Part shown: one piece after another, positions 4,747-40,750 of the stretch
Layout of the letters: each line of letters starts with the position of its first letter
Position numbering within the stretch: the first letter of the stretch is position 1
Made by a program: the position numbers and the translations under genes
Assembly: GCA_963666205.1 (NCBI GenBank)
Contig: OY762654.1
Span: 1,776,752-1,840,751, forward strand
Source of the DNA: Synergistales bacterium
Lineage (GTDB): Bacteria; Synergistota; Synergistia; Synergistales; JAFGMB01
Direction of reading: 5' to 3'
Length of the DNA stretch: 64,000 nt
The notes under the pieces: generated by a model
Told to the model about the DNA's origin: nothing
The model's database searches: none
What the model saw: only the letters and a program-made list of their open reading frames with translations

Positions 4747-5907
4747 ATGATAAAGACCAGGAAACTTGTAATGATCCCGGGACCGACTCCGGTGGTTCGT
4801 TCGATCCAGGATCAGATGGGCAGGGAAACGGTGGCCTTTGGAGATTCGGGTTTTGTGGAAGATTTTTCTGAGGTTCTTGCAGATCTTAAAGAATTGTGGA
4901 AATGCGATGGAGAAGTGTTTGTGGTGGCAGGGTCGGGAACGTTAGCTATGGAAATGGCAATAGCCAATACGACCAAACGTGGTGACAGCATACTGATCTG
5001 TTCCAATGGATTTTTTGGTGATCGTTTTATAGATATGTGCGAGAGGAAAGGCCTTGATGTAGATGTTCTTTCTGCCGAGTGGGGAAGCAGCGTGACCCCT
5101 GAAATGGTAGAGGCAAAACTTGAAGAGAAGAAATATGATGCGGTAACGGTAACCCATGCGGAGACTTCCACTGGAGTTGTAGCGCCGATAGGAGCTATTG
5201 GAGAGGTTCTGAAAAAACATCCTGAAACTATTTATATTGTGGATGCGGTAGCCGCAGCCGCAGGAATAGAAGAGAAGGTAGACCCCATGGGAATAGATAT
5301 ACTTCTTACATGTTCCCAGAAAGCTTTCGGAGTTGCCCCCGGACTTGGGATAGTATGGGCCAGCAGAAAGGCAATGGCCAGAAGGGAAAGCCTTGGAAAG
5401 ATCCCCGAGTCATATATAGATTTTGATAAATGGCTTCCTGTAATGCATGACCCCAGGAAATACTGGGGAACTCCTCCCATTAACATGATATGGGCTTTTA
5501 AGGAAGCTATCCGCATAATCAGGGAAGAGGGAATAGAGGAGCGATATGCCCGTCACATAAGGCAGGCAGCGATGTTTGACGGAGCTATGGAAAGTCTTGG
5601 TTTTGAAGTGGCAGCCGAGGAAGGATACCGGGCTCCGACCCTTTCTGTATATAAGTATCCTGGGGGTGCTGAAGTGGATGATGCCAGTTTCCGATCGGTA
5701 CTTGGGGAAGAGGGAGTAGAGTCGGCAGGCTGCCTTGGCAAGTACAAGGGAGTAGCCTTCAGAATGGGTCATATGGGCAATATAGACAAGCACACCCTGG
5801 TTTCTGCAATAGCAGCAGTGGAGAGGGCCTGCATGAGATGCGGAGTGGAGATAGAACCCGGCAGGGCTGTGGGAACCCTTCAGAGGGGTCTCGTCAACGA
5901 ACACTGA
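4747..5907 (+). CDS. class V aminotransferase (serine-pyruvate / alanine-glyoxylate aminotransferase family)
   Basis: ORF track 4696..5907. MIPGPTPV N-terminus and SQKAFGVAPGLG PLP-lysine motif. The ATG at 4747 lies 9 nt after AGGAGG, so the upstream 17 aa are treated as a spurious extension. Confidence 0.85.
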   Translation: MIKTRKLVMIPGPTPVVRSIQDQMGRETVAFGDSGFVEDFSEVLADLKELWKCDGEVFVVAGSGTLAMEMAIANTTKRGDSILICSNGFFGDRFIDMCERKGLDVDVLSAEWGSSVTPEMVEAKLEEKKYDAVTVTHAETSTGVVAPIGAIGEVLKKHPETIYIVDAVAAAAGIEEKVDPMGIDILLTCSQKAFGVAPGLGIVWASRKAMARRESLGKIPESYIDFDKWLPVMHDPRKYWGTPPINMIWAFKEAIRIIREEGIEERYARHIRQAAMFDGAMESLGFEVAAEEGYRAPTLSVYKYPGGAEVDDASFRSVLGEEGVESAGCLGKYKGVAFRMGHMGNIDKHTLVSAIAAVERACMRCGVEIEPGRAVGTLQRGLVNEH

Positions 5908-9272: not shown

Positions 9273-9527
9273 ATGAAATCCTTTCCCATGAAGGACAGCC
9301 GTGTGCTGGTCGGTAATATTCTGGGGAAAATAAGGGAAAAATATGGATCCAGGGTGAGCATAAACATATATGATCCAAGGTGCTACCTCTGGTTTTTCGA
9401 TCTTGTAAGGTTCAACGTAAGGGCTACTGAAGCAACATGGATCATGGATGGGAAACTTCTGGCCAGGGGCGTTCCATCCTGGGAGGATCTTGAAATATCC
9501 ATTGATGAAAGGCTTGAGAAAGAATGA
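9273..9527 (+). CDS. small hypothetical protein, possibly a thioredoxin-fold protein lacking CxxC
   Basis: 84 aa with a GAGGAAGAG RBS. The C-terminal stretch TWIMDGKLLARGVPSWEDLEISIDERL resembles the end of small Thioredoxin_3-type proteins (..ALVIDGKVV.SGRVPS.EEI..). No redox cysteine pair is present. The similarity was judged by eye only. Confidence 0.4.
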   Translation: MKSFPMKDSRVLVGNILGKIREKYGSRVSINIYDPRCYLWFFDLVRFNVRATEATWIMDGKLLARGVPSWEDLEISIDERLEKE

Positions 9528-9606
9528 GCTGTGGTAAAATAATCCTGCCTTAATCGAGTTTTCCATCAGGTTGGTTTCATCCTTTTTCTTTGAAGGTGGG
9601 TTTGTT

Positions 9607-12360
9607 ATGACCGGAGACGAAAGAAACAGAATTTCCTCAGAACGGAGTCCCTCCGTGGAAAAACCCGTCCTTGAAAGTGAAAAGGTGCCCTGCTCTTCTG
9701 AAGAGAAAGGTAGCGGCCTCCGTCGGGAGATGCATATACCCCTGGGATTAAGCAGTCTGATATCCTTCCTCATAACCGATATTCAGGGAGAGGAAGCTTC
9801 TATAATGTCAACAAGCAGCGGAGCAGAACGACTTTTCGGTTATGGTCCGTCTGAAATGGCGGGTCAGCTCCTTTCGTCCATTATGGTTCCAGACAGGGTG
9901 TGCCGCCTTCCTGTTATTTTCGGCAAACTATCGGCCACTAAAGAGGGATACAGTTCAGAGACAGTCCTTGCAAAGCGATCGGGAGAACTTTTTCCTGCGC
10001 ATCTTAAGGTCTATCCTGTGCATGATAAAGATGGTAATGTGGTACAGGCCCTTTTTTTTATCACCGACCTTTCCTCCCGTAAAAAACTTGAAAAGGAACT
10101 CTCCAGGAGCGAGGAAAAATTCCGTATTCTCATTGAGAATTCTCTTGATATCATAACCATCCTTGATCACGATGGAACAGTGACCTATCACAGCCCTTCT
10201 GTCAGGGATGTCCTCGGTTATGAAAAGGGTGAACTGCAAAGAGCCAATATTTTTGACAACATACATCCTGAAGATTTCCCTGCGACTATGTCCGCCCTCG
10301 CTGAAGTATCTAAAGATCCAGGTATTCCAAAGGTCCTTGAACATCGTTTCAGAGATAGTTCCGGGGCCTGGAAGATATTTGAGAGCCGGGGTAAGGCTCT
10401 TATATCCGGTTCTGGCCTTGAAGGGATAATTGTAAATTCCAGGGATATTTCCGACAGAAAGGAAGCAGAGAGGGAACTTTCCCGCCGTCTTCATTTTGAG
10501 GAGACCCTTTCGGAAATATCAACAAGATTTGTCCTGACACAATATCTGGATGAAGCGATCAACACTTCCCTTGAACAGCTCGGTCTTTTCAGTTGCGCAA
10601 GTCGTGCCTATATTTTTACAATTGACAGGAAATCCGGAACAATGAGCAATACCCATGAATGGTGTTACAAGGATATAGAGCCCCAGATAGATCATCTCCA
10701 GTTCCTTCCTCTCAATAGCTTTCCATGGTGGATGAAAAGACTTGAAGAAGATGGAGAGATAGTTATTCAGGATGTATCCAGCCTTCCTCCGGAGGCATCT
10801 GCCGAGAAGACTATCCTCCAGGAACAGGGGATAAGATCCATCCTCGTACTTCCCTTTTATTGTGCCAATTCGATCAGGGGTTATGTGGGTTTCGACAATG
10901 TGATCTCCACCTGGGCCTGGGAAAAGAAGGACATAAGACTTCTCAAGGTCTATGCACATATCCTTGGCCAGGCTTTTGAAAAAAATGAAACTTTCCGTTC
11001 CTATCAGTCCAGCCTCCAGTTCAACCTCAGTCTTCTCAACAGTTCTCCAAACCCGATAATGGTTCTTGATGCACAAGGTTCAATAACCTATGTAAATCCT
11101 TCCTTTGGCAGGGTATCAGGCTATACCTTAAAGGAAGTCAGGGGCATGAGAGCCCCTTATCCCTGGTGGCCTGAAGATGACGTGGAGGATTGCCTCCGGG
11201 AACATGAAGCCCTCTTAAGAGGTAATAGTACAGCAGGAGAGAAACGGTTTATATCCAGCAAGGGAGAGACTTTCCGGGTTTACATAAATAGCTCTCTTAT
11301 AAATGGAGAAGAAGGGGAGAACCATTTCCTGGTTAACTGGCTCGATATCACAGAGCGGTATCGGGCAGAGAGGGCTCACAGGGCTTCAGAGGAAAAATAC
11401 AGATCTCTCGTGGAAAACCTGAATGAAATAATTTATTCACTCAACAGGGAAGGACATATCACTTTTATAAGCCCTGTTGTAAAAGCATTGCTTGGATATG
11501 AAACATCGGAGATGGAGGGATGCGCCTTTACTTCCTTTGTTCACGAAGATGACAGTTACGCTGTGGAGGCAAGCCTGAAGGACCGGTGGGCTGGCATTCC
11601 GGAAAAGTATGAGCTCCGCATGATCAGCAATGAAGGTAAAGTACATCACGTGCTGGTTTCGTCAAGACCCCAGTTTGACGGAAATAACGTAGTTGGTGTT
11701 ATCGGCTCCCTCAGCGATATCACAGCCCAGAGGGAAACGGAGATCAAACTGGAGGCAAGTTACAGAAAGCTTGATGAATTGATGGATGGAGCCGCATCTT
11801 CCATAGTGTCTCTTCTGGAGATAAGAGATCCCTATTCAGCCGGACATCAGAGACGGGTATCCATACTCGCTACGGCAATTGCAAAGGAAATGAAGCTTAA
11901 GGAAGAACAGGTGGAAAATGTAAGAATTTCCAGCCTTGTCCACGATATAGGAAAGATCCATATACCAGCTGAGATACTCAGTAAGCCATCAAAGCTGAGA
12001 AAAACGGAATTCGAACTTCTCAAGGCTCATCCCCGCTCGGGTTCTGAGGTCATACATAAATTCGCTTTCCCTGAGATCATCGGAGAAATAGTGCTCCAGC
12101 ATCATGAGAGATTCGACGGTTCGGGTTATCCGGATGGTCTGAAGGGACAGGAAATACTGCTTGAGGCCAGGATCCTTGCCGTGGCAGATGTTGTGGAAGC
12201 TATGGTTTCCCATAGACCCTATCGTCCGGCCCACAGTTTTGATGAAGCCCTGGAGGAGATCTCTTCAAAGAGCGGCATTCATTTCGACCCTGAAGTTGTA
12301 GTTGCCTGTATCAGTGTCTTTTCAAAAAAAGGGTTCTTCGCAGGGTCTTCCAGTATCTGA
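9607..12360 (+). CDS. multidomain sensor, PAS-PAS-GAF-PAS-PAS-HD-GYP (putative c-di-GMP phosphodiesterase)
   Basis: ORF track 9571..12360. The ATG at 9607 lies 7 nt after AAGGTGG. Four PAS-like segments, for example ENSLDIITILDHDGTVTYHSP and NLNEIIYSLNREGHITFISP. A GAF-like segment, then C-terminal HDIGKIHIP and HHERFDGSGYPDGL (HD-GYP). Confidence 0.85.
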   Translation: MTGDERNRISSERSPSVEKPVLESEKVPCSSEEKGSGLRREMHIPLGLSSLISFLITDIQGEEASIMSTSSGAERLFGYGPSEMAGQLLSSIMVPDRVCRLPVIFGKLSATKEGYSSETVLAKRSGELFPAHLKVYPVHDKDGNVVQALFFITDLSSRKKLEKELSRSEEKFRILIENSLDIITILDHDGTVTYHSPSVRDVLGYEKGELQRANIFDNIHPEDFPATMSALAEVSKDPGIPKVLEHRFRDSSGAWKIFESRGKALISGSGLEGIIVNSRDISDRKEAERELSRRLHFEETLSEISTRFVLTQYLDEAINTSLEQLGLFSCASRAYIFTIDRKSGTMSNTHEWCYKDIEPQIDHLQFLPLNSFPWWMKRLEEDGEIVIQDVSSLPPEASAEKTILQEQGIRSILVLPFYCANSIRGYVGFDNVISTWAWEKKDIRLLKVYAHILGQAFEKNETFRSYQSSLQFNLSLLNSSPNPIMVLDAQGSITYVNPSFGRVSGYTLKEVRGMRAPYPWWPEDDVEDCLREHEALLRGNSTAGEKRFISSKGETFRVYINSSLINGEEGENHFLVNWLDITERYRAERAHRASEEKYRSLVENLNEIIYSLNREGHITFISPVVKALLGYETSEMEGCAFTSFVHEDDSYAVEASLKDRWAGIPEKYELRMISNEGKVHHVLVSSRPQFDGNNVVGVIGSLSDITAQRETEIKLEASYRKLDELMDGAASSIVSLLEIRDPYSAGHQRRVSILATAIAKEMKLKEEQVENVRISSLVHDIGKIHIPAEILSKPSKLRKTEFELLKAHPRSGSEVIHKFAFPEIIGEIVLQHHERFDGSGYPDGLKGQEILLEARILAVADVVEAMVSHRPYRPAHSFDEALEEISSKSGIHFDPEVVVACISVFSKKGFFAGSSSI

Positions 12361-12381: not shown

Positions 12382-12921
12382 TCACCGCCATCGACCTCTA
12401 CCTCCCGGACCCCGGCCATGACCGCCCTTTCTTCCAGGACCGAAACCTGAACATGGAGGTCCTGCGATGTCATTTTCGGGGAAATTTCTATGGCATTCAT
12501 CGCAGACGGCCGCTATTTCCAGTGTCTGGGGGAGGAAGTGAAATGCCTCTTCCTCAACCCATTTCCTGACCATAGCCTCTTTGCCTGTTTCATCCTCCAT
12601 GTGTATTACCTTGCCGCAGATCCTGCAGTATACGTGAAAGTGCATCTTTTGACCTGGAAGTTCAAAACGGTAAAACCCTTCCTCCAAATTAACCAGGTTC
12701 AGGAGCCCAAGCCTGGATAGAAGGTTTACAGTACGGTAGATGGTGGCGATCCCGATAGTCGGGTCCTCTGCCTGCGCCAATTCCCTGAGATCGTTAACGC
12801 TGCAATGTTTTCCCGAGTTTTCGATGAGGGTCCTTATGATGATTTCCCGCTGACTGGTAAGGCGGAAGCCCCTTTTTTTCAGTTCTTCCCTATATTGGTC
12901 GCTCAGCTTTCCAGGTAACAT
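12382..12921 (-). CDS. fur: Fur family transcriptional repressor with an unusual C-terminal Gly/Arg-rich extension
   Basis: 179 aa. Fur-type winged helix (LTSQREIIIRTLIENSGKHCSVNDL..IATIYRTVNLL) and CRIC...CDEC structural zinc motifs. About 30 extra residues end in AGPPCSGFGPGRKGGHGRGPGGRGRWR. GGAGGA RBS. A near-consensus Fur box lies in its own promoter region. Confidence 0.85.
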   Translation of the reverse strand: MLPGKLSDQYREELKKRGFRLTSQREIIIRTLIENSGKHCSVNDLRELAQAEDPTIGIATIYRTVNLLSRLGLLNLVNLEEGFYRFELPGQKMHFHVYCRICGKVIHMEDETGKEAMVRKWVEEEAFHFLPQTLEIAAVCDECHRNFPENDIAGPPCSGFGPGRKGGHGRGPGGRGRWR

Positions 12922-12970
12922 CTTGTTCCTCCAGAAGGTTATGTTCTCTTTATGAATTTTACATTGACCC

Positions 12971-13000
12971 TTGACAATATAACATATACAGGTCTAGAAT
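12971..13000 (+). promoter_or_regulatory. sigma70-type promoter of the DUF5320 / MinD-Fer4 operon
   Basis: TTGACA (12971-12976), an 18-nt spacer, then TAGAAT (12995-13000). It overlaps the divergent fur promoter face to face. Confidence 0.55.
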
Positions 13001-13005
13001 GCTAA
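12976..13005 (-). promoter_or_regulatory. candidate promoter of the fur-family gene
   Basis: Minus strand reads TTAGCA (13005-13000), an 18-nt spacer, then TGT-TATATT (extended -10; TATATT at 12981-12976). The -35 element directly abuts the Fur box at 13006-13020. Confidence 0.45.
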
Positions 13006-13020
13006 TGATAATCATTATCA
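13006..13020. promoter_or_regulatory. Fur box (operator site 1)
   Basis: TGATAATCATTATCA is a perfect 7-1-7 palindrome. The 19-mer at 13001-13019, GCTAATGATAATCATTATC, matches the classical Fur consensus GATAATGATAATCATTATC at 18 of 19 positions. The box starts 6 nt after the -10 hexamer. Confidence 0.75.
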
Positions 13021-13234
13021 CTAATTGAATCTCCTGATATGCGATACATGAGTAATGATCCTGTATTTCCGACTCTGGTTTTGCTGACACTATTTTTGTA
13101 AGTATTGTACTGGAGTTTCCAGAGAAACGGGTTTCTTCTGGCCATTCTGAATTTACTTATCCTGATCATGTATTGCTATAAGAGGACAATACATCTTTCC
13201 AAAGGGAGAGATGAACTTCAAGGAGGCGATACAA

Positions 13235-13510
13235 ATGCCGAGATTTAACGGAAGAGGGCCAAGAGGTATGGGTCCCGGAACAGGATGGGGCCTTGGTCCC
13301 TGTGGAGCAGGCAGAGCCTGGGGCCGTGGAGGCGGATATGGGTATGGCTGGAGAGTGCCTATGGCAGACAGTGGTTATTATCCTCCATATGCTGCGCCTG
13401 TACAGCCTGCACCCCAGGATGAAAAGGTCTTTCTTCAGGATCAGCTGGACTATCTTGAATCTGAAGTCAGGCGGATACGGGAAAGAATGGATGATCTCGA
13501 TAAGGCTTAA
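13235..13510 (+). CDS. DUF5320-like protein (Gly/Arg-rich N-terminus plus C-terminal coiled coil)
   Basis: ORF track 13211..13510. The ATG at 13235 lies 8 nt after AAGGAGG. Starts MPRFNGRGPRGMGPGTGWGLGPCGAGRAWGRGGGYGYGWR and ends with the helical LQDQLDYLESEVRRIRERMDDLDKA. This is the DUF5320 architecture as I recall it. Confidence 0.7.
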   Translation: MPRFNGRGPRGMGPGTGWGLGPCGAGRAWGRGGGYGYGWRVPMADSGYYPPYAAPVQPAPQDEKVFLQDQLDYLESEVRRIRERMDDLDKA

Positions 13511-13548
13511 CCCTGATCTTTTCTTCTTACCCCATGTTAACTTTCTTT

Positions 13549-13584
13549 AAGAGAGGGGAGTTTTCTCTCCTCTCTTGATTTTGT
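13549..13584 (+). terminator. hairpin / partial terminator between DUF5320 and the first ATPase gene
   Basis: AAGAGAGGGGAG (13549-13560), loop TTTT, CTCTCCTCTCTT (13565-13576). This gives 12 bp including one G-U pair. T-rich GATTTTGTCTGTTT follows. Confidence 0.5.
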
Positions 13585-13629
13585 CTGTTTCTCCGATACA
13601 ATCAGGGAATGCCAATTGCCAACTGAACA

Positions 13630-13644
13630 GAATAATCAATATCA
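13630..13644. promoter_or_regulatory. Fur-box-like operator site 2
   Basis: GAATAATCAATATCA is 13/15 identical to site 3 (15888-15902). It lies 44 nt upstream of the first ATPase gene. A possible weak promoter is TTGCCA (13616-13621) with TATCAA (13640-13645). Confidence 0.4.
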
Positions 13645-13687
13645 ATAAACCATTATTTTAGATGGAACAAGAAAATCAACGGAGGAC

Positions 13688-14542
13688 GTGATCTCGGAAA
13701 TGTTTCGAATAGCAGTTGCAAGCGGCAAGGGAGGTACCGGAAAAACGTGTGTTGCCTCATCACTTGCATTGACGGCAGGTCAGGCTGTTGCCGTTGATGT
13801 GGATGTGGAAGAACCCAACCTTGCTATTCTTATGGGAACAGAAATGAGACATCATCTTGATGTTACAGTACCTCTTCCCGTAATAAATGAAGATAAATGT
13901 ACAAAATGTGGTAAATGTGCCGAGGCCTGCCGTTTTGGAGCCCTGGCCATTTTTCCTGACAAATATCCTATCCTTAACAGTTCTCTCTGTAATGGTTGCG
14001 GTACATGTTCTATTGTCTGTCCATATTCTGCCATAACTGAAACGAAAAGAGTAGTTGGAGAATTGAATTACGGGGAAGAAGGATCTATCAGGATACTTGA
14101 AGGGCGTCTTAATGTAGGTGTCTACAATGCCATACCTATCATCGAGAAGACTCTTAATGAAGCTGAAAAATGGGACACTACCCATGTGATAGACTGTTCT
14201 CCCGGCACATCCTGTCCCATGGTGGCAGCGGTGGGGCGGGCCGATTATGTGGTTTTAGTGACAGAACCGACTCCCTTTGGCCTGGCGGATCTTGCTCTTG
14301 CCCTTACGGTGGTCAGGGATCTTGGCATACCGGCAGGAGTAGTGGTCAACAGGGCAGATCTTTCCGGAGGGGATCTGGGTCCTCTATGTGACAAGTTCGG
14401 AGTGGATGTTATTGCCAGTCTGCCCTTTTCAAGACAGGTCGCGAAAGCCTATGCCAGTGGTATTTCCCCAATCAGGGTCGATGCAAACTGGCGGGAGGCT
14501 ATGAAAAAAGTATTAAACAGGGCAGAGGAGGCACTTCAATGA
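13688..14542 (+). CDS. MinD/ParA-type P-loop ATPase with inserted 2x[4Fe-4S] ferredoxin domain
   Basis: 284 aa. Deviant Walker A ASGKGGTGKT, then CTKCGKCAEACRFGAL and CNGCGTCSIVCPYSAI cluster motifs. GTG at 13688 or ATG at 13700 are possible starts. Confidence 0.85.
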   Translation: MISEMFRIAVASGKGGTGKTCVASSLALTAGQAVAVDVDVEEPNLAILMGTEMRHHLDVTVPLPVINEDKCTKCGKCAEACRFGALAIFPDKYPILNSSLCNGCGTCSIVCPYSAITETKRVVGELNYGEEGSIRILEGRLNVGVYNAIPIIEKTLNEAEKWDTTHVIDCSPGTSCPMVAAVGRADYVVLVTEPTPFGLADLALALTVVRDLGIPAGVVVNRADLSGGDLGPLCDKFGVDVIASLPFSRQVAKAYASGISPIRVDANWREAMKKVLNRAEEALQ

Positions 14543-15414
14543 GACCTCGTGAAGTTGTTATTGTAAGCGGCAAGGGGGGTACGGGAAAGACATCCCTTTC
14601 TTCGGTTCTCTGTGCAAAGGCAGCCGGAAAAGCCGTTTTTGCAGATACTGACGTTGACGCGCCGGATCTCTGGATACTTCTTAAGCCCGAAGAAAAGAAG
14701 CGTTTTGTTTTCCACGGTCTTGAAAAGGCAAAGGTTGATCAGGGAAAATGTATAGGCTGCGGAAAATGTGCCCGAACCTGCCGATTCAACGCCATAGAAC
14801 TCCAGGATGGAAAGGCTTTTGTTAACACCACTTTCTGTGAGGGCTGTGCGGCCTGCACTTATGTTTGCCCCACGAAATGTATTTCCCTTGAGCAGATAAC
14901 ACAGGGGCATTACTTTTACGGTGAGACAGAGCATGGTCCCATGTGGCATGCTCTCCTTGATCCGGGTGGAGAGAATTCTGGAATGCTTGTTTCACTCATC
15001 AGAAGATCTTCAGCTGAAACCGCAGAGGATATGGGGCTTCCCCTGATAGTGATTGATGGACCTCCCGGAGTTGCCTGTCCGGCTATATCGACCCTCACAG
15101 GAGCTGACCTGGCGGTTGTTGTAACGGAGCCGACCCTTTCGGGCTGGCACGATCTCAAAAGAGTCGGAGAACTCTGTCGGCAGTTGAGAGTTCCCATGAC
15201 CGTAGTGATAAACAAGTACGATCTTGCCCCCGATGAAGCCGAAAATATTTCCCGGAAATGCCAGGATAGCAATTGGCCTGTTCTGGGTATGATACCCTTC
15301 CGCAGGGAAGTTGTAGATGCTGTTTCACAGGCCCGGATCCCGGTGGAGGAACTATCTCCGGAGATCAACGTGATCTGGAGGGCAATAAAAACTCATACAG
15401 GTTTAGATATCTGA
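14539..15414 (+). CDS. MinD/ParA-type P-loop ATPase with inserted 2x[4Fe-4S] ferredoxin domain (paralogue)
   Basis: 291 aa. SGKGGTGKT, CIGCGKCARTCRFNAI and CEGCAACTYVCPTKCI. Its start overlaps the previous stop (ATGA at 14539-14542), which implies translational coupling. Confidence 0.85.
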   Translation: MRPREVVIVSGKGGTGKTSLSSVLCAKAAGKAVFADTDVDAPDLWILLKPEEKKRFVFHGLEKAKVDQGKCIGCGKCARTCRFNAIELQDGKAFVNTTFCEGCAACTYVCPTKCISLEQITQGHYFYGETEHGPMWHALLDPGGENSGMLVSLIRRSSAETAEDMGLPLIVIDGPPGVACPAISTLTGADLAVVVTEPTLSGWHDLKRVGELCRQLRVPMTVVINKYDLAPDEAENISRKCQDSNWPVLGMIPFRREVVDAVSQARIPVEELSPEINVIWRAIKTHTGLDI

Positions 15415-15443
15415 CAAATACTTAAAAAGGAGTTGAGGTAATT

Positions 15444-15776
15444 ATGATAGCAGTATCATCCGATGGTAATTCCCTTTCAAGCATGATAGCCTCCCGTTTT
15501 GCAAGGGCGGCCTTCTTCCTCATTTTTGACGATGAGGGCAAGCTGCTGGAGGCCATGCCTAACGATACTTCAGATGTGGCTCATGGCGCTGGAGGCAGGG
15601 CTGTTCAACTGCTTTCAGCTAAAAAGGTGACATCTGTGGTGGGTCCCATGTTCGGCCCCAATGCCTGTGTAGCCCTCAAGGCTGCGGGCATAAAGGCCTT
15701 TGAGGCCAGGGATATGACTGTTGAAGATGCAGTCAAAAAGGTTCTCCAGGGCGAAATGAAGGAAATGGTTTTTTAG
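15444..15776 (+). CDS. NifB/NifX/NifY-fold protein (dinitrogenase FeMo-cofactor-biosynthesis domain, 'orange protein'-like)
   Basis: 110 aa. IAVSSDG...SRFARAAFFLIFD...GAGGRAVQLL..KVTSVV...GPNACVALKAAGIKAF pattern typical of the NifX/NifB C-terminal family. Confidence 0.75.
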   Translation: MIAVSSDGNSLSSMIASRFARAAFFLIFDDEGKLLEAMPNDTSDVAHGAGGRAVQLLSAKKVTSVVGPMFGPNACVALKAAGIKAFEARDMTVEDAVKKVLQGEMKEMVF

Positions 15777-15814
15777 AATAATCCATCATCTCCCATTATA
15801 TAAATAATCTTCAT

Positions 15815-15842
15815 GGCCCCACTACGGTGGGGTCTTTTTTTT
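15815..15842 (+). terminator. rho-independent terminator after the NifX-fold gene
   Basis: CCCCAC (15817-15822), loop TACG, GTGGGG (15827-15832), followed by a run of T ending at 15842. Confidence 0.7.
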
Positions 15843-15853
15843 GGGGAAAGTAC

Positions 15854-15882
15854 TTGCTATATACCCCTTAGGAGCATATAAT
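15854..15882 (+). promoter_or_regulatory. sigma70-type promoter of the twin ferredoxin genes
   Basis: TTGCTA (15854-15859), a 17-nt spacer, then TATAAT (15877-15882). Confidence 0.6.
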
Positions 15883-15887
15883 GCTAT

Positions 15888-15902
15888 TGATAATCAATAT
15901 CA
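15888..15902. promoter_or_regulatory. Fur-box operator site 3
   Basis: TGATAATCAATATCA is 14/15 identical to site 1. It starts 6 nt after the -10 hexamer, the same spacing as site 1. It is embedded in TTGATAATCAATATCAATATTCAATATC. Confidence 0.65.
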
Positions 15903-15954
15903 ATATTCAATATCGCTGTTATAGATTTCCTGTAGCAGGTCAGGAGGATTAGAA

Positions 15955-16200
15955 ATGCCATGGGTGAGAGATGATCTTTGTGTTAATTGTGGTAAGTGTA
16001 TAGAGTCCTGTTCTTCGGGAGCCATATCCATGAAGGGTGGAAAAGCCTTGGTATCTCAGGAAAAATGTATTAAATGTGGGGCATGTATGCCTGTTTGTCC
16101 TGAGGGTGCTATAAGGCCGAATTCAGAAAATCCGGCCTTGGCTGGTAGATCTGGAGCGGGATATGGTTTTGGCCAGGGAATGAGCCGTTTGAGAAAGTAG
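15955..16200 (+). CDS. 2x[4Fe-4S] ferredoxin with Gly-rich C-terminal tail
   Basis: 81 aa. CVNCGKCIESC and CIKCGACMPVCP motifs. Tail AGRSGAGYGFGQGMSRLRK. AGGAGG RBS. Confidence 0.8.
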   Translation: MPWVRDDLCVNCGKCIESCSSGAISMKGGKALVSQEKCIKCGACMPVCPEGAIRPNSENPALAGRSGAGYGFGQGMSRLRK

Positions 16201-16211
16201 AGAGGTCTATT

Positions 16212-16565
16212 ATGCCCTGGATATCCCCTGAAAAATGCGTTGGTTGTGGAATATGCGTACATAAGTGTCCTGTCGGAGCGATCTCCATCAGGTATAGTGC
16301 CGCAGAACTGGATATGGACCAGTGTATTCGCTGTGGAATATGTCATGACGTATGTCCCAGAATGGCAATAAGACATGATAGTGAGCGGATTCCACGGGAG
16401 ATTCAGTCTAATCTTGAAAAAGCGGAAAGATCAATGGCGGAATGTGTAAGGTTGCTGGGAAATCCCAATGAAAGAATTAAGTGTCATGAAAGGCTGGTAA
16501 AACATTTCAACAAGGAAAAGATAGTTATCGAAGAAACCCTTAAAGAACTTGAGAGAATCAGGTAG
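16212..16565 (+). CDS. 2x[4Fe-4S] ferredoxin-domain protein with helical C-terminal extension
   Basis: 117 aa. CVGCGICVHKCP and CIRCGICHDVCP motifs. It starts MPW like its neighbour. The C-terminal 55 aa or so are charged and helical. Confidence 0.8.
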   Translation: MPWISPEKCVGCGICVHKCPVGAISIRYSAAELDMDQCIRCGICHDVCPRMAIRHDSERIPREIQSNLEKAERSMAECVRLLGNPNERIKCHERLVKHFNKEKIVIEETLKELERIR

Positions 16566-16716: not shown

Positions 16717-17670
16717 TTGAACAAGGAGCGTATCAGGAATTTCCCCATTTCCTTTTTTGCGGTTTCCATGGGGATCACCGGAGTTGTTCTTATGGTCGAA
16801 AAGATGGAACATCTGATTCTCATTCCCCACATTTTTTCGAGTTTCCTTTTATTGTTTTCCCTTGCCCTTTTCGTAATCATCAGTGGTTTGTATTTTACAA
16901 AGGTCTTTTCCTATCCCCGTGTTGTGGCAGAAGAACTTCTGCATCCCATAAAAATGCACTTTCTTCCCACTTTTTCGGTGAGCCTTCTTCTTCTGTCAGT
17001 AGCTTTTCTTGGAGAATATCCCGTCCTTTCGAAATCATTCTGGATACCAGGGACGGTTTTACATTTGATCATTACCCTTTACACATTATCCAGCTGGGTA
17101 CAGCGCCAGGATTTTGAAATTCAGCATGCCAATCCATCCTGGTTCATACCCATCCTTGGAAATCTGATAATTCCGGTTGCGGGAGTGATCCATGCCCCTC
17201 TTGAATTGAACTGGTTTTTCTTTAGTGTGGGTTTATTTTTCTGGGTACTCCTTTTTGCTGTATTGCTCAACAGGATCATATTTCATCATCCCATTCCAGA
17301 AAAACTTATCCCAACCTTCTTCATTCTCATGGCTCCGCCTGCAGTTGCTTTTATCTCCTATGTCAAGCTTACCGGAAGGATAGATCTCTTTGCCCAATCT
17401 CTCTATTCCCTTGCTCTTTTCATGTTTCTCTTTGTGATCAGCCAGTTGAAACTTTTTGCAGGGATCAGGTTTTATCTGTCATGGTGGGCCTATTCCTTTC
17501 CCCTCGCAGCCCTGGGACTTGCCTCTTCCCTTATTTTTTCGAAAACGGAGAGGGTCTATTACCAGTATGGAGCCATATTTTTCTTTATCATCCTTCTGGG
17601 GGTGGCCGGCTTTCTCGTATTCCTCACAATAGGACAGATTAAGGCAGGCAGGATCTGCGTTGAAGAATAA
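16717..17670 (+). CDS. TehA/TDT (tellurite-resistance / dicarboxylate, SLAC1-like) family anion channel/transporter
   Basis: 317 aa, TTG start. About 10 hydrophobic helices. N-terminal IRNFPISFFAVSMGITG is typical of the TDT family. Confidence 0.75.
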   Translation: MNKERIRNFPISFFAVSMGITGVVLMVEKMEHLILIPHIFSSFLLLFSLALFVIISGLYFTKVFSYPRVVAEELLHPIKMHFLPTFSVSLLLLSVAFLGEYPVLSKSFWIPGTVLHLIITLYTLSSWVQRQDFEIQHANPSWFIPILGNLIIPVAGVIHAPLELNWFFFSVGLFFWVLLFAVLLNRIIFHHPIPEKLIPTFFILMAPPAVAFISYVKLTGRIDLFAQSLYSLALFMFLFVISQLKLFAGIRFYLSWWAYSFPLAALGLASSLIFSKTERVYYQYGAIFFFIILLGVAGFLVFLTIGQIKAGRICVEE

Positions 17671-17860: not shown

Positions 17861-18421
17861 TTACAGTATGTTTTTCCCAGCTTCTTTAAGGTCTGCGATG
17901 AGTACTTCATCTTCAGATGCTTCATTTTTAGTGTACAGGTCAGGGTAGCAGAATTCTCCGGTTATCTCCATTTCCAGGAGCTTGCACGATTCCCTGAAAG
18001 AAAATAGAAGTCCGTCAAAGCAGCTCTCATGACTATCTCCTGCACTTGCAACAAGAATGGCCTTTTTCCCTTTAAGTGCCGAAAGAGCTTCATCAGAAAC
18101 GAAGGGTACCAGTCTGTCAAGAACCGGTTTTATCTGAGAGCTCCATGAGTACCAGTACAAGGGTGTAGCAAAGATAACAGTATCAGCTTCTGCGAGGGAT
18201 TCATAGATATTATCCATCTCATCGTCTATTATGCAGGGACGTCCTCCGCTCCAGCATTTCCGGCAGTCAAGGCATCCATCGATGGTCATGTCTCCCAGGC
18301 GGAACCTGTCTATCTCAACATCTCCATCGAACTCTGATACCAGAGCTTCGGCCATGGTTTCACTGTTCCCGCCCTTTCGGGGACTTCCAAGAAGCAAGCA
18401 GATCCTTTTCATAGTTTTCAT
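17861..18421 (-). CDS. flavodoxin-like fold FMN reductase / iron-sulfur flavoprotein family
   Basis: 186 aa. ICLLLGSPRKGGNSETMAEAL FMN-binding N-terminus and a compact Cys motif CLDCRKCWSGGRPC. Confidence 0.8.
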   Translation of the reverse strand: MKTMKRICLLLGSPRKGGNSETMAEALVSEFDGDVEIDRFRLGDMTIDGCLDCRKCWSGGRPCIIDDEMDNIYESLAEADTVIFATPLYWYSWSSQIKPVLDRLVPFVSDEALSALKGKKAILVASAGDSHESCFDGLLFSFRESCKLLEMEITGEFCYPDLYTKNEASEDEVLIADLKEAGKNIL

Positions 18422-18825
18422 CTCCTTTTTTCTTTTTTCTCTATCCTCAGAAAAACGCCTTTCCTGTAACTGTTGTTCTCAAGATCTTTCCTGATATTCT
18501 CTGTTGCTTCGATAAGCCTGGCTATGTCTACCTGTCTGAAACAGGGTCCGTATTGTTGAAGAAGTCCTGTTCCTGAATCAAGCAGGGTCTTCGCACCTCT
18601 TGTATTATCTCTGCTGAGATGATACATCGCAACAGCTAAATGGAGCAATCCCTGGTAAAAGGATCGTATTTGGGAATCTCCGAACCCCCACAGGTGTTCC
18701 ATAACATCATGACAACGGTAAAATTCCCCTTTGTTGAAAAGATCTATTCCGTAATCGAGGATTTCAGTTTCTTTCCACAAGACCAGATCATCAATGGGAG
18801 TATTTCCATTTATTCTTTCCAGCAT
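18418..18825 (-). CDS. DUF309 domain protein
   Basis: ORF track 18418..18906. FNKGEFYRCHDVMEHLW...FYQGLLHLAVAMYHL matches the DUF309 pattern. The first 27 aa of the ORF are translated AT-rich promoter-like DNA, so the start is moved to the ATG at 18825. It overlaps the downstream gene by 4 nt. Confidence 0.6.
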   Translation of the reverse strand: MLERINGNTPIDDLVLWKETEILDYGIDLFNKGEFYRCHDVMEHLWGFGDSQIRSFYQGLLHLAVAMYHLSRDNTRGAKTLLDSGTGLLQQYGPCFRQVDIARLIEATENIRKDLENNSYRKGVFLRIEKKEKRR

Positions 18826-18885
18826 GGGTTTCACCGTCCCTTTGTAACAGTTTAGGAAAAATATTTGAAATAGTAAAACTTTTTC

Positions 18886-18914
18886 TTGACTTATTGAAGA
18901 ATACATAATACATT
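18886..18914 (+). promoter_or_regulatory. candidate promoter of the orphan gene at 18952
   Basis: TTGACT (18886-18891), a 17-nt spacer, then TACATT (18909-18914). Confidence 0.35.
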
Positions 18915-27716: not shown

Positions 27717-27747
27717 TTGACTTAAAACATATTGATATCTATTATCA
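27717..27747 (+). promoter_or_regulatory. promoter with overlapping Fur-box-like site 4
   Basis: TTGACT (27717-27722), a 17-nt spacer, then TATTAT (27740-27745). TGATATCTATTATCA (27733-27747) is 12/15 identical to site 1 and covers the -10. Confidence 0.45.
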
Positions 27748-27867: not shown

Positions 27868-29166
27868 ATGTTTACAATCAGGGAATTTTTGAGATCGGAA
27901 GTGAAGCCTGCATTGGGATGTACTGAGCCCGGTGCGGTGGCACTGGGCGTAGCGAGGGCCGTAGAGGAACTTGGAGGAGCCCCCGTTAAAGAGATCGAGG
28001 TAGTGGTAAGCGACAGCATATACAAGAACGGCATGTACGTAGGTATTCCAGGTACAGGAGGCCTCAAGGGCAACGACATAGCAGCAGCCATGGCAGCCCT
28101 TCAGGGAAAGTCGGAATACGGCCTTGAAGTTCTCAAGGACTGCGATGCTGATACTGTGAAAAAGTCCCAGGCCATGGTGGATTCAGGGAAGGTGGTCATA
28201 ATCCCCGACCTTGACCGCCACGGAGTATATGTGGAATCCAGGGTGAGCAGTGAAAATGACACAGCAGTGACGGTCATAGAGAGCACCCACACCAATATAA
28301 CGAAGGTTACCCTCAACGACAGGGTCATATTTGAAACAGAAAAAGGGACAGAGGACAAGAACGGCAGTAAGACCCTATCCATCCCCGAGCAGGTGGAAAG
28401 GATGAACTACTCGGAGCTGGTCAGTATGGCTGAGGACATGGACGCAGAGGACGTGGACTACGTCATGAACGGAGTGGACATGAACCTCACCATAGCCGAA
28501 TACGGATTCACTCACAACGTAGGCATCAACCTCGGATCCACCATAAAGAAACTGGCAGGTGAGCATTACGACTCCGATGACCTGAGCAGCAGGATCAAGG
28601 CAGTGGCGGCGGCAGCCTCCGACGCACGAATGGACGGAGCACCCTATCCCGTTATGAGCAGTGCCGGAAGCGGCAACCACGGGATCACCGCCATCCTTCC
28701 CGTATACGTAGCAGGAGATCATTATGGCAAGAGCAGGGAAGAGATAGCGAAAGCCATAGCCTTCAGCCACCTCACCACATCCTTCATAAAGAGCAGGATG
28801 GGCAGGCTCAGCCCCGTATGCGGATGCAGCGTAGCTGCAGGGGCAGGAGCGGCATCGGGGATCGTCTATCTTCTGAGTAAAGACATAGCAAAGGCAGAGA
28901 AGGCAGTGGAGATGGTGCTTGGCAACCTGGTGGGGATGGTATGTGACGGAGCGAAGGAGACCTGTGCCCTGAAGGTAGGGACGGGAGCCCTTGAATCCTA
29001 CCATGCGGCCATGATCGTGATGGGAGGCAATGGCCTGAACGGACCCCAGGGAGTGGTGGACGATACCATAGAGAAGACCGTGGCAAACGCTGCTTCCATC
29101 AATGTGGAAGGAATGACGGAAGTCGACAGTATTATCATTGATTTCATAAAACAAAGGTTCGCATAA
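27868..29166 (+). CDS. UPF0597 / YhaM(CyuA)-type L-cysteine desulfidase family protein (serine dehydratase alpha-like)
   Basis: 432 aa. N-terminal EVKPALGCTEPGAVALG and later SSAGSGNHG and CGCSVAAGAG motifs typical of the family. Confidence 0.8.
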   Translation: MFTIREFLRSEVKPALGCTEPGAVALGVARAVEELGGAPVKEIEVVVSDSIYKNGMYVGIPGTGGLKGNDIAAAMAALQGKSEYGLEVLKDCDADTVKKSQAMVDSGKVVIIPDLDRHGVYVESRVSSENDTAVTVIESTHTNITKVTLNDRVIFETEKGTEDKNGSKTLSIPEQVERMNYSELVSMAEDMDAEDVDYVMNGVDMNLTIAEYGFTHNVGINLGSTIKKLAGEHYDSDDLSSRIKAVAAAASDARMDGAPYPVMSSAGSGNHGITAILPVYVAGDHYGKSREEIAKAIAFSHLTTSFIKSRMGRLSPVCGCSVAAGAGAASGIVYLLSKDIAKAEKAVEMVLGNLVGMVCDGAKETCALKVGTGALESYHAAMIVMGGNGLNGPQGVVDDTIEKTVANAASINVEGMTEVDSIIIDFIKQRFA

Positions 29167-36481: not shown

Positions 36482-36982
36482 TTATAGTGAATTTCCATAG
36501 CCCTTTCTCTTTCTAAGAAAGCCCACGAGGCCACCTTCTTTAAGGATATCAATCATAACGTTGGGCATGGATTCTACTCTTGTTTCAGTTCCCTTTGTAA
36601 TATTGAAAAGGGTTCCTGACTCTACATTGTATTCCAGTTCATCCTCATCTGATATGGCAGAAGTATCACATTCCACAATAGACAGTCCAACATTTATTGC
36701 GTTCCTGAAAAATATTCTGCCGAAGGAAGAGGCTACAATGCAGCCGACGCCTGCGTTCTTTAGCGCGAGAGGGGCCTGTTCTCTTGACGAACCGCACCCG
36801 AAATTTTCTCCCCCTACAACAAAATCACCTTTACTTAGTCTGCTATGAAAATCAGGGTCCAGATCTTCCATGGCATGTTCGGCTAGAATGGACATGTTTA
36901 GAGTTTTTGTATATTTGCCGGCAATAATAAGGTCTGTATTGATATCATCACCGTATTTCAGAGCTTTCCCATATAGTTTCAT
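36482..36982 (-). CDS. aconitase-family hydratase small subunit (LeuD-like)
   Basis: 166 aa. GENFGCGSSREQAPLALK motif. A 2-nt gap separates it from the large subunit. Confidence 0.85.
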   Translation of the reverse strand: MKLYGKALKYGDDINTDLIIAGKYTKTLNMSILAEHAMEDLDPDFHSRLSKGDFVVGGENFGCGSSREQAPLALKNAGVGCIVASSFGRIFFRNAINVGLSIVECDTSAISDEDELEYNVESGTLFNITKGTETRVESMPNVMIDILKEGGLVGFLRKRKGYGNSL

Positions 36983-36984
36983 TT

Positions 36985-38211
36985 TTAGGCCTCCATCTTG
37001 CGGGGATCAGTAATTTTCCCTGTCAGGGAACTTGCTGCTGCTGTAGCCGGAGAGGCAAGATATATACAGGCTTTATTATTTCCCATCCTTCCCTTGAAGT
37101 TTCTGTTCGTTGTTGAGAGAACATTTTCATTGTCTCCAGGAATTCCATTATGTGTACCAACGCAGGCTCCACAGCCTATAGGAGCCAGGGTTGCACCGGC
37201 ATTGAGAAGAGTGGAAATGATTCCTTCTTCAATGGCCTGTAACAATATTTTTTTTGAAGCTGGAGCGACCAGAAACCTTACAGAGGGGTGGATTTTCCTA
37301 CCCTCAAGGATTTTTGCCGCAATCCTGAGATCATCGACCCGGGCATTTGTACAGCTTCCCAGGAATATCTGTTGGATTGGAATCCCTTCAACCTCAGGAA
37401 TTGAACAAACATTATCTACCGTATGGGGTTTTGCTACCATAGGGGAAAGTTTTGAGAGATCAACTTCCACATATCTCTCTATCACAGCTCCGGCATCTGA
37501 TTGAAGGCCTGTCGAGGAATCACAGATAACACCGCATTTCGCTCCCATCTCTACCACCATATTGCAAATGGTCATTTTTTCAGAAAGAGAGATCGCTTCA
37601 AGGAAGTCTCCATGAAATTCTATAGCTTTATATACAGCACCCTGTGCACCTAAAGTTCCGACTATTGAAAGAATAAGGTCTTTGGCAAAGACTCCATCTG
37701 GTAGATTTCCATTGAGGTTTATCTTGATAGTCTGTGGAATCCTGAACCATGATTTACCTGTAAACATGGCTGCAGCGAGATCAGTTGAACCGACACCAAT
37801 GGAGATAGTCCCGACTGCTCCATAGGTACATGTATGGGAATCAGCACCAAGGACAAGATCTCCTGCTTTAACGTACTCATTTTCTATAATAAGTTGGTGA
37901 CATATCCCTTCCCCAATGTCATGAAACAGGCATGCCTGTTTCATGGAGAATTCCCGAATGAGACTGTGCAGGTTGGCAATATTCTGATTCGGAGCGGGGG
38001 TGGCATGGTCAAGAATAAACACAGTGCCTCGGGGTTTTGCGATATAGAGACCTCCCATTTCTTCGAAAGCCTTGATCGCAAGAGGGCCTGTAGTGTCAGA
38101 AGCCATAACAAGATCAACATCACATATGTGGTATGACCCCGACCTGGCGAGGGATCCTGAGTGTTTAGAAAAAACCTGTTCAGTTATTGTAAGGGGAGTA
38201 ACCTTGTTCAT
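36985..38211 (-). CDS. aconitase-family hydratase large subunit (LeuC/homoaconitase-like)
   Basis: 408 aa. GADSHTCTYGA, GSCTNARVDDL and GCGACVG (Fe-S cysteine ligands). Confidence 0.85.
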   Translation of the reverse strand: MNKVTPLTITEQVFSKHSGSLARSGSYHICDVDLVMASDTTGPLAIKAFEEMGGLYIAKPRGTVFILDHATPAPNQNIANLHSLIREFSMKQACLFHDIGEGICHQLIIENEYVKAGDLVLGADSHTCTYGAVGTISIGVGSTDLAAAMFTGKSWFRIPQTIKINLNGNLPDGVFAKDLILSIVGTLGAQGAVYKAIEFHGDFLEAISLSEKMTICNMVVEMGAKCGVICDSSTGLQSDAGAVIERYVEVDLSKLSPMVAKPHTVDNVCSIPEVEGIPIQQIFLGSCTNARVDDLRIAAKILEGRKIHPSVRFLVAPASKKILLQAIEEGIISTLLNAGATLAPIGCGACVGTHNGIPGDNENVLSTTNRNFKGRMGNNKACIYLASPATAAASSLTGKITDPRKMEA

Positions 38212-40216: not shown

Positions 40217-40240
40217 TCGTAGCAATATTATGAAAACATG

Positions 40241-40278
40241 GGTTGGCGAAGGTCAAGTAAACTTTGCCAACCTTTTTT
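40241..40278 (+). terminator. intra-operon hairpin/attenuator between tctC and tctB
   Basis: GGTTGGC (40241-40247) pairs with GCCAACC (40266-40272), followed by TTTTTT. Confidence 0.5.
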
Positions 40279-40306
40279 CTAGAAAGCGAGGAAGATCTAA
40301 AATATT

Positions 40307-40750
40307 ATGTTACGTAAAAATGGAGAATTAATAATATATGGAGTTTGTGTCATTCTTTGCGTATTTTTTCTTTTTGTTATCAAAGATCTTCCGGCAACGG
40401 CACGAAACTTTCCTCAATTCAGTTTAATATCCCTGATTGTTGTAGCCGGTTTGGGTTTTATCAAAACATTACTGTCTCTGCAAAAATCTGATAAAGAGAA
40501 GGCAGCTGCGGATTGTGGAGGAGAAAGGAAATTCCTATTTACCCTTCTATTATCAGTTCTTTTTGTTTTTTCAATGAAATATCTTGGGTTTTATACAGCA
40601 TCTTTACTGTACCTTACATCACTTATGTATCTCTTAAATATCAGGAAGATCAAGGTTGTCTTAATGGCGAACATTGTGTTTCTTACAGGGATTTACCTGG
40701 TATTTTCTCTTTTTCTCAACGTTCCTGTTGAGAAAGGGATATTTTTTTAA
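40307..40750 (+). CDS. tctB: tripartite tricarboxylate transporter small membrane subunit (TctB family)
   Basis: 147 aa with four hydrophobic helices. It sits between tctC and tctA. Confidence 0.75.
   Translation: MLRKNGELIIYGVCVILCVFFLFVIKDLPATARNFPQFSLISLIVVAGLGFIKTLLSLQKSDKEKAAADCGGERKFLFTLLLSVLFVFSMKYLGFYTASLLYLTSLMYLLNIRKIKVVLMANIVFLTGIYLVFSLFLNVPVEKGIFF

Follow-up and report, generated by a model that had tools for sequence, protein, structure and literature searches.

The subject of this analysis is a divergent control region in a 64-kb stretch of DNA from a Synergistales bacterium (hereafter the window), which separates the gene for a Fur-family regulator from a gene cluster of the orange-protein (ORP) type. 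The cluster opens with a DUF5320 gene, goes on with two MinD-like Fe-S ATPase genes and a gene for an ORP/NifX-like protein, and is followed, behind a terminator, by a pair of ferredoxin genes (Table 1). Palindromes of Fur-box type lie immediately downstream of the two promoters, P1 and P2, that we assign to these genes and, to our minds, they are probably operators of the adjacent Synergistota-specific Fur-family repressor, which would control a small local regulon. ORP-type clusters (MinD-like Fe-S ATPases, orange-protein/NifX-like protein, DUF5320) are widespread in anaerobes, and a conserved sigma-70/Fur-type switch may offer a handle on them, since the signal that releases the repressor would show when cells need the complex.

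Table 1. Genes and putative control elements of the locus in window coordinates (L002 and L010 are two of the related Synergistota loci introduced below)
Feature	Position	Strand	Remarks
Fur-family regulator gene (179 aa)	12382-12921	-	Pfam PF01475, E=3.9e-25
P1	12971-13000	+	TTGACA (12971-12976), 18 nt, TAGAAT (12995-13000), gap GCTAA; 11/12 consensus; predicted to drive the DUF5320/ATPase/NifX-like operon
Pfur	12976-13005	-	TTAGCA (13005-13000), 18 nt, TGtTATATT (12984-12976; TATATT 12981-12976); overlaps P1 on the opposite strand
Box 1	13000-13020		Putative 21-bp double Fur-type operator; core TGATAATCATTATCA (13006-13020) plus overlapping 7-1-7 (13000-13014, 2 mismatches)
DUF5320 gene (91 aa)	13235-13510	+	Pfam PF17253, 7.8e-18; first gene 3' of the operator
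Terminator-like hairpin after DUF5320	13547-13578	+	14 pairs, then T-run
P3 (candidate)	13575-13602	+	TTGATT, 16 nt, TACAAT; 9/12; overlaps 3' side of the DUF5320 hairpin
Box 3	13630-13644		GAATAATCAATATCA; 3 mismatches; about +21 to +36 of P3
MinD/CbiA-type P-loop ATPase gene with inserted 2x[4Fe-4S] ferredoxin domain	13688-14542	+	Pfam CbiA, ParA, Fer4
Second, paralogous ATPase gene with Fer4 insert	14539-15414	+	Start overlaps preceding stop (ATGA)
Gene for single-domain Nitro_FeMo-Co protein (NifX/ORP/MTH1175-like, 110 aa)	15444-15776	+	Pfam PF02579, 7e-16
Intrinsic terminator of the P1 operon	15815-15843	+	Terminator-like hairpin at 15815-15834; kept in L010 and L002
P2	15854-15882	+	TTGCTA (15854-15859), 17 nt, TATAAT (15877-15882), gap GCTAT; 10/12; kept in L010 and L002
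Box 2	15888-15902		TGATAATCAATATCA; identical in L010, CGATAATCAATATCA in L002
2x[4Fe-4S] ferredoxin gene	15955-16200	+	Pfam Fer4 families
2x[4Fe-4S] ferredoxin gene	16212-16565	+	Pfam Fer4 families
TehA/SLAC1-family anion transporter gene	16717-17670	+	Pfam SLAC1, 1e-49; TIGR00816
P4 and box 4	27717-27747	+	TTGACT, 17 nt, TATTAT (27717-27745); box 4 TGATATCTATTATCA (27733-27747) across spacer and -10
Gene for SDH_alpha-only protein (432 aa)	27868-29166	+	Pfam PF03313, 2e-55; without beta domain

The shared control region and its boxes

The base strings and coordinates of a preliminary description of this DNA were re-read against the window, which returned P1, P2, boxes 1 and 2 and, on the minus strand adjoining box 1, the promoter of the regulator gene (Pfur) exactly as they had been given. 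The box 1 core forms a perfect 7-1-7 palindrome; the bases at 13001-13019 agree with the 19-bp Fur consensus GATAATGATAATCATTATC at 18 of 19 positions; box 2 is the same as box 1 at 14 of 15. Judged as Fur operators, in which either the 7-1-7 repeat TGATAATnATTATCA or the 19-bp consensus must overlap a promoter, box 1 has no mismatch and box 2 has one, and each begins 5 nt 3' of the -10 hexamer of its promoter. P1 and P2 also rank top in a simple sigma-70-type consensus scan of 12850-16000, in which promoter-like sites are pattern matches, and Pfur is listed there together with its TG. This TGn extension (12984-12982) had escaped the preliminary description, as had a further promoter candidate (P3) and a site at 27733-27747 (see below).

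Matches to the 15-mer with at most one mismatch are confined, over the 64 kb, to box 1 and box 2. At up to three mismatches there are 14 matches against 3.4 expected, a number that none of 100 shuffles reached, and comparison with TGATAATNATTATCA at up to two mismatches yields four against 0.47 expected from shuffles, namely box 1, its 6-nt-shifted overlap (13000-13014), box 2 and the site at 27733-27747. Random occurrence in AT-rich DNA, which had been named earlier as a possible objection, is thus at odds with the counts, and at ~45% GC the window is not particularly AT-rich.

Box 1 differs from a simple palindrome in that a second 7-1-7 repeat, shifted by 6 nt, overlaps its core, takes in the last base of the P1 -10 and the entire Pfur -35 and is kept in Acetomicrobium-like loci. 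While a single 7-1-7 binds one Fur dimer, the classical box, being two overlapping 7-1-7 repeats, binds two (PMC11353095), so that two dimers are to be expected on box 1 and the one repressor dimer proposed earlier is probably too few. A comparable second site 3' of box 2, ATCAATATTCAATATC, was considered and dropped since it is not kept in L002. The promoters themselves had been called face-to-face, which does not describe their arrangement: P1 and Pfur overlap back-to-back, with the P1 -35 on the Pfur -10 and the P1 -10 on the Pfur -35, and fire apart from predicted starts ~38 bp from each other. Since both occupy the same ~35 bp on opposite strands, RNA polymerase should be able to occupy only one of them at a time.

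If transcription starts ~7 nt beyond the -10 hexamers, the operators at P1 and P2 extend from about -1 to +14, which is a standard position for blocking initiation. Counted in this way, the predicted starts lie near 13007, 13609, 15889 and 27752 on the plus strand and near 12969 on the minus strand. We infer that the regulator binds the boxes and that its binding represses. Bound to box 1 or box 2, it would block open-complex formation or promoter escape, and two dimers on box 1 would cover the P1 start as well as the Pfur -35. The outcome at the divergent region would be joint control of operon and regulator gene, and we infer, in particular, that P1 and Pfur are jointly repressed by the bound regulator.

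In the Acetomicrobium-like genomes (window, L010, L001, L002) a poorly conserved leader of 202-249 nt separates box 1 from the DUF5320 start codon (13021-13234 in the window); it shrinks to 62 nt in L004 and to 17-26 nt in other Synergistota families. An Rfam search of 12800-16100, which includes the P1 leader, found no riboswitch or known RNA above threshold. Sub-threshold matches to STnc100 and RsmY fall on the terminator and the adjoining end of the NifX-like gene and were set aside as chance.

Conservation of the proposed switch and extent of its putative regulon

Related loci were collected by a genome scan with subfamily-specific peptide patterns, from which the best 80 were retained; it gave 25 regulator loci (L001-L025, ~20 of them distinct) with regulator identities from 94% down to 38%. 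Among these best 80 loci the relatives of the regulator are all Synergistota, and the closest named genome is a metagenome-assembled genome of Acetomicrobium hydrogeniformans (94% identity). In L001-L005 and L010, which have the same layout as the window, the box 1 core is 100% conserved, and the P1 hexamers of orthologs are unchanged or closer to consensus (TATAAT in L001). When the intergenic DNA of the divergent region is aligned for five genomes, a ~55-bp invariant block emerges which reads, on the fur strand, box, TTAGCA, (C)TA(G/T)AAT, TATG(T/A)TATATT and TTGACA, with unalignable DNA on either side. That box 1 and both sets of hexamers are invariant where the flanks have diverged supports the previous proposal of an operator common to the operon and the regulator's own divergent promoter.

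Across ~20 loci the architecture, in operon orientation, is cTTGACA, N17-18, TAnnAT, N5, TGATAATnATTATCA and then the DUF5320 gene, which is the first open reading frame (ORF) 3' of the box in most lineages. It occurs with divergent fur in Acetomicrobium, Aminivibrio, Aminobacteriaceae and Synergistaceae, and L015 and L018 show the same architecture with fur co-directional and the box between fur and DUF5320. The Synergistota loci repeatedly show fur in synteny with DUF5320 and with the ATPase and NifX-like genes, and every box with at most one mismatch in L001-L025 adjoins genes of the cluster, be fur divergent or co-directional. Other arrangements occur as well. A degenerate form (TAAAAT, N5, TGAGAATAGTTATCG) stands upstream of the NifX-like gene in the Thermovirgaceae locus L013, and in Thermovirga (L006-L009) a TGATAACnATTATCG box follows right after TTGACA, again upstream of the NifX-like gene.

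Opposite-strand elements, identified by eye, are found in the divergent loci: a -35 of TTAGCA or TTGCAT and a TGn-extended -10 of TGtTATATT or TGgCATTAT, with TTGCAT, 17 nt and TGgCATTAT as the version of L019-L025. The co-directional loci L015 and L018 are without such elements. Retention of this promoter in divergent loci only supports the idea that it is a real overlapping promoter of the regulator gene.

In L018 a second box with one mismatch (TGATAATTGTTATCA, 9414-9428) lies ~4 kb from fur, upstream of a detached NifX-like gene on the opposite strand, indicating that the box accompanies the NifX-like gene even when the latter is detached from the cluster.

As for the genes involved, a first part of the regulon would be made up of DUF5320, the two MinD-like Fe-S ATPases and the ORP/NifX-like protein, all expressed from P1 and possibly helped by the internal P3 and the weak box 3. 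The start of the DUF5320 gene at 13235 is preceded by AAGGAGG and every ortholog starts with MP. The N-terminus of its product is rich in Gly, Arg and Trp, contains a single Cys, is strongly conserved (MPRFNGxGPxGMGPGTGWGLGPCGAGRAW) and leads into a coiled coil. The two ATPases are ~33-37% identical to each other (tblastn), and the first gives weak NCBIfam matches to MrpORP and MinD. Among solved structures the NifX-like protein matches TM1290 (1rdu, 9e-19), D. gigas ORP (2wfb, 3.4e-12) and MTH1175 (1eo1, 1e-11).

Box 3, previously taken as a third copy of the box, is where it was said to be, between the DUF5320 hairpin and the first ATPase gene, yet as an operator it is a weak member of the set. 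The hairpin is kept with compensatory differences in L010, L001, L002 and L004, and P3, which overlaps it, is near-invariant among the window and three of these loci (L010, L001, L002) and missing from L004. Hence the ATPase genes may start a transcript of their own 3' of a terminator or attenuator. Whether box 3 works as a true third operator for them, by way of a roadblock or of co-operative binding, strikes us as somewhat doubtful. Its place 3' of a conserved promoter-like P3, the in-register box with a single mismatch in L001 (TGATAATCATTATCC) and the ATCAnTATC core conserved in L010 (GAATAATCACTATCA, three mismatches) and L002 (GGAGTATCATTATCC, four) speak for such a role. Against these stand the three mismatches in the window and L010 and four in L002, the alignment of L004, in which nothing corresponds to box 3, and the fact that no such site was detected in other families, so the half-site could be a mere relic. 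Box 3 may be regarded as a possible auxiliary site.

A second part of the regulon would consist of the two ferredoxins and, perhaps, the TehA-like transporter, expressed from P2. In L010 and L002, P2 and box 2 are kept 3' of the terminator and followed by the same ferredoxin pair, which agrees with the earlier view that these genes form a separate, co-regulated unit. The scan found no promoter-like or terminator-like site in the gap that separates the TehA-like gene from the second ferredoxin gene, and L002 and L010 have these genes in the same order. On these grounds the P2 unit may reach as far as 17670, with the transporter gene as its possible last member.

A third part is suggested by P4 and box 4, some 12 kb off, in front of a gene of the serine-dehydratase-alpha family. 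In two other lineages the orthologs of this gene have, at -30, a box that reads CGATAATCATTATCA (L090/L091) or TGATACTGATTTTCA (L094-L097), on account of which it is probably an extra regulon member in this genus-level group. The protein found no match in NCBIfam; cysteine desulfidases of the CyuA/YhaM type have the same SDH_alpha-only architecture, and it may be one of them.

An atypical Fur-family regulator and rival readings

The regulator is plainly a member of the Fur family. Its PF01475 match spans profile positions 1-119 of 121, its best solved-structure match is a Fur (9ire, 5e-21), the recognition helix ATxYRT is present, and an AlphaFold2 model has the Fur fold and secondary structure with a disordered tail (residues 154-179, pLDDT 30-40). 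It fits none of the named subfamilies: the best NCBIfam match, to the Bacillus-type Fur model, reaches 94.8 bits against a cut-off of 220, and PerR, Zur and Irr are far below their cut-offs.

To follow its metal sites, 21 subfamily members were aligned to 63 Fur proteins that the genome scan described above had supplied as an outgroup; an E. coli sequence served as a ruler for the numbering, and the conservation counts are independent of it. The structural Zn site S1 (C99, C102, C140, C143) is invariant in both groups (21/21 and 63/63). Site S2 is formed in Fur proteins by a His from the alpha2-alpha3 loop, a Glu from beta2, two His from beta3 and a Glu from beta4 (PMC11353095), and the window's regulator has H39, E87, H94 and H96 at the first four of these positions and H107 where the final Glu is expected. 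This Glu is replaced by His in 17 of the 21 subfamily members, or by Pro, and in a deeper branch (L019-L025) H39, H96 and H107 are all replaced, whereas the outgroups keep H33, E81, H88 and H90 in 61-63 of 63 and E101 in 56 of 63. Site S3, defined as the His/Asp of the HHDH motif with a Glu and a His of the dimerisation domain, has lost its ligands in 21/21 members, positions 93 and 95 being M/L/F/T/V and F/L/V/I. The deep-branch regulators nonetheless still adjoin boxes that are perfect or have one mismatch, in the standard geometry.

A further peculiarity is the Cys/Gly/Arg-rich C-terminal tail, 36 aa long in the window's regulator. All 21 members carry 26-54 residues after the last CxxC, which are Gly/Arg/Lys/Trp-rich and usually include a Cys, as in the CGRxCRRR-type tails of L013 and L022, compared with a median of 4 and a maximum of 18 residues in the outgroups (n=64). 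An exhaustive profile search over 1.84 billion representatives brought up 25,111 members of the Fur family, and from the top 150 matches seven tail-matching sequences were retrieved, all of which end in Cys-flanked poly-Arg. The tails resemble the DUF5320 N-terminus in composition only: a hidden Markov model built from 14 DUF5320 N-termini scores them at no more than 7.8 bits, for most loci no higher than shuffled tails, and a shared motif was therefore rejected. The regulator may be seen as a natural experiment in Fur evolution, retaining operator and fold while its sensor sites erode and a tail is gained.

What such a protein senses can be approached from two sides. As S2 is still plausible in Acetomicrobium, a metal co-repressor is the default guess; as S2 is eroded in the deeper branches, the signal may be read otherwise, for example via the Cys/Arg-rich tail. 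The tail might bind an Fe-S cluster or anionic iron-sulfide species or, alternatively, the regulator might interact with DUF5320, the first product under its control. E. coli Fur is reported, in work cited in PMC11353095, to bind [2Fe-2S] via cysteines of its C-terminal domain, and by analogy a cluster on the tail cysteines is a possibility. An AT-hook-like role in DNA affinity would explain the tail equally well. Taken to its end, this line of thought has the subfamily no longer sensing iron, keeping the Fur operator and reading the state of the Fe-S system by a tail ligand or by contact with DUF5320, a speculation that we consider unlikely to hold in full. If it did, DUF5320 and a small DNA-binding protein would together make a conserved regulatory module, the second component being of the Fur family in Synergistota and DUF134 elsewhere (see below). 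At any rate, iron responsiveness is not to be assumed for so atypical a family member, a caution already expressed in the preliminary description.

Our reading of the palindromes as operators of the adjacent repressor starts from what can be read directly in the DNA, namely where the sites lie and how they are spaced, that they are conserved and that the regulator gene is linked to them, and sequence comparison makes operators and local regulon appear well supported. Several points weigh against it. The centre of the box 1 core lies ~-44 from the predicted Pfur start, which fits activation too, so autoregulation may be of either sign. In the Thermovirgaceae loci L011, L012, L014, L016, L017 and L022 there is no box with up to three mismatches, and the cluster is distant or absent in L011, L016 and L022; the association of box and cluster is accordingly strong but not universal. 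Repressing iron-consuming Fe-S proteins under iron plenty would also be physiologically odd for a classical Fur, and a second, canonical Fur in the genome could bind these sites as well.

The last point leads to the alternative that survives best, although we hold it to be distinctly less probable than a dedicated repressor: the boxes would belong to the general iron regulon of a canonical iron-sensing Fur (this protein or a paralog) and their local linkage would have no special meaning. The box is indeed indistinguishable from generic 7-1-7 sites beside ordinary Fur genes in Syntrophomonas, Clostridia and others. In the Syntrophomonas-type outgroups L044, L055, L060, L073 and L075, perfect 7-1-7 repeats flank an ordinary fur gene on both sides (~4940-4990 and 5434-5463), which tells us that canonical Fur proteins of Firmicutes use the same operator word. 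Moreover, the Acetomicrobium regulator retains four or five plausible S2 ligands, and one candidate phyla radiation (CPR) locus has DUF5320/NifX/ATPase genes beside feoAB. A dedicated pair of regulator and operator is, however, what one would read from a linkage of box, regulator and cluster that is phylum-wide and persists in two gene orientations. Nor does iron sensing sit well with the loss of S3 in all members and of S2 in the deeper branches when the outgroups keep S2, and no box with at most one mismatch turned up elsewhere in the Synergistota loci or the window. Iron-uptake genes (feo, siderophore, metal ABC) were not seen among the large ORFs of the window, most of which were annotated.

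Improbable, in our view, is a second alternative, by which the regulator would sense redox state or peroxide in the manner of PerR and accordingly switch on an oxygen-sensitive, anaerobe-specific Fe-S complex, in parallel to the control that the redox sensor OrpR exerts on the orp operons of Desulfovibrio. PerR, which has S1 and an S2-type site and is not known to have S3, resembles the window's regulator in this combination, and weak NCBIfam matches to PerR exist. Reportedly, however, the PerR box is TTATAATnATTATAA, and the boxes here are of Fur type with G at position 2 and C at position 14; PerR also has Asp at two carboxylate positions, at which the regulator has Glu87 and His107. The S2 histidines needed for PerR-type oxidation are, in addition, missing in the deep-branch members. 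In favour of a redox signal, the homologous ORP genes of D. vulgaris are under redox-potential control (PMC8359166). By box type, assignments of the regulator to PerR or to Zur were both rejected.

Finally, although AT-rich hexamers abound in the intergenic DNA that contains the sites and consensus scans deliver pattern matches, the notion that the palindromes are chance AT-rich sequence or parts of strong promoters, with no repressor involved, is barely credible and effectively refuted by conservation, given four sites where 0.47 are expected, a 15-mer perfectly kept while its flanks diverge, a constant distance to the -10 in ~20 loci with regulators as little as 38% identical, and a position 3' of the -10 where promoter function has no need of a palindrome.

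Related systems and neighbouring genes

With a dedicated repressor as the preferred reading, the locus invites comparison with classical Fur systems. Their 19-bp box consists of two overlapping 7-1-7 repeats, TGATAATnATTATCA in the Bacillus subtilis type, and Fur autoregulation is known. Shared with them are the operator sequence, its overlap with the core promoter and the double site at the regulator's own promoter, as are fold, structural Cys4 site and recognition helix (PMC11353095). What sets the Synergistota system apart is the loss of S3, the replaced Glu and progressive erosion of S2 and the 26-54-aa tail, and its putative targets are a local Fe-S gene cluster instead of iron-uptake genes. 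So while the logic of the Fur box is familiar, a divergent, tailed Fur subfamily that is apparently dedicated to an ORP-like Fe-S cluster would be new.

In Desulfovibrio vulgaris, the ORP complex includes the products of orp3, orp4 and orp8, genes under the control of sigma-54, of IHF and of OrpR, a redox-sensing activator (PMC6345978, PMC8359166, PMC3897727). Both systems have two paralogous MinD-like ATPases with two [4Fe-4S] motifs each, matched here to Orp3 and Orp4 by description (PMC6345978), a single-domain Nitro_FeMo-Co protein as in Orp8 (see the 2wfb match above), and genes grouped around a divergent control region beside a dedicated regulator. They differ in the mode of control, for which the window offers sigma-70-type promoters and a putative Fur-family repressor instead of sigma-54 and an enhancer-binding activator. 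Gene content differs too, in that DUF5320 comes first and ferredoxin genes are added here, and no Orp5, no two-domain MrpORP/Orp9 homolog and no sigma-54 activator were found at the window locus.

Another relative is IssA/SipA of Pyrococcus furiosus, a thioferrate-storing protein with the same Nitro_FeMo-Co (IPR003731) domain (PMC5524996). IssA binds anionic thioferrate, and its tail, which is Pro-rich and then Gly/Arg/aromatic-rich, is proposed to wrap the polymer (PMC5524996). Besides the shared domain (MTH1175, the modelling template for IssA, is the structure that the NifX-like protein matches at 1e-11), the window's system also has cationic, Gly/Arg/aromatic-rich and probably disordered segments. 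These are, however, located on the DUF5320 N-terminus and the regulator tail, whereas the domain protein itself (110 aa) is tail-less. A word-indexed search for fusions of Nitro_FeMo-Co to DUF5320 or to Gly/Arg tails gave only six close relatives of 110 aa.

Outside Synergistota, four diverse DUF5320 genes (L109-L112, two of whose proteins are NCBI-named Patescibacteria/CPR) all adjoin a gene for DUF134, a small helix-turn-helix (HTH) protein, which follows DUF5320 directly in three of the four loci. The order in the fourth is DUF5320, two NifX genes, ATPase-Fer4, DUF134 and feoAB; NifX-like genes and a Fer4-ATPase are present in L109. As in the window, DUF5320 comes first and beside a small DNA-binding protein, and its N-terminal motif is near-identical to that of the window's protein. 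Here, though, the partner is the DUF134 HTH protein and the upstream palindrome is TATGGGTATATACTCATA instead of a Fur box; this near-palindrome lies upstream of DUF5320 at ~4880-4990 in L109-L112 and is a candidate DUF134 operator. No Fur-type box with at most one mismatch occurs in L109-L112, the sole match with two mismatches being in L111. The pairing of DUF5320 with a DNA-binding protein across unrelated phyla suggests a regulatory role for DUF5320. In L110, the DUF134 protein has a zinc-ribbon and a cationic Trp/Lys/Arg tail.

Among the other genes of the window, two LeuCD/aconitase-type pairs of large and small subunits (36482-38211 and 42284-44037) and two TctABC-type tricarboxylate transporter sets (39281-42247 and 48805-51857) are without a Fur-type box and stand among many genes for aminotransferases and amino-acid metabolism. 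Closer to the cluster, the gene for a 929-aa multi-PAS/GAF/HD-GYP-type (HD_5) signalling protein (9571-12360) converges on the fur gene, a neighbour also present in L001, L002 and L003. Just past the cluster, on the minus strand, are FMN-reductase/flavodoxin-like and DUF309 genes (17861-18906), and the FMN-reductase gene adjoins the cluster in L001, L004 and L005 as well, joined by DUF309 in L001.

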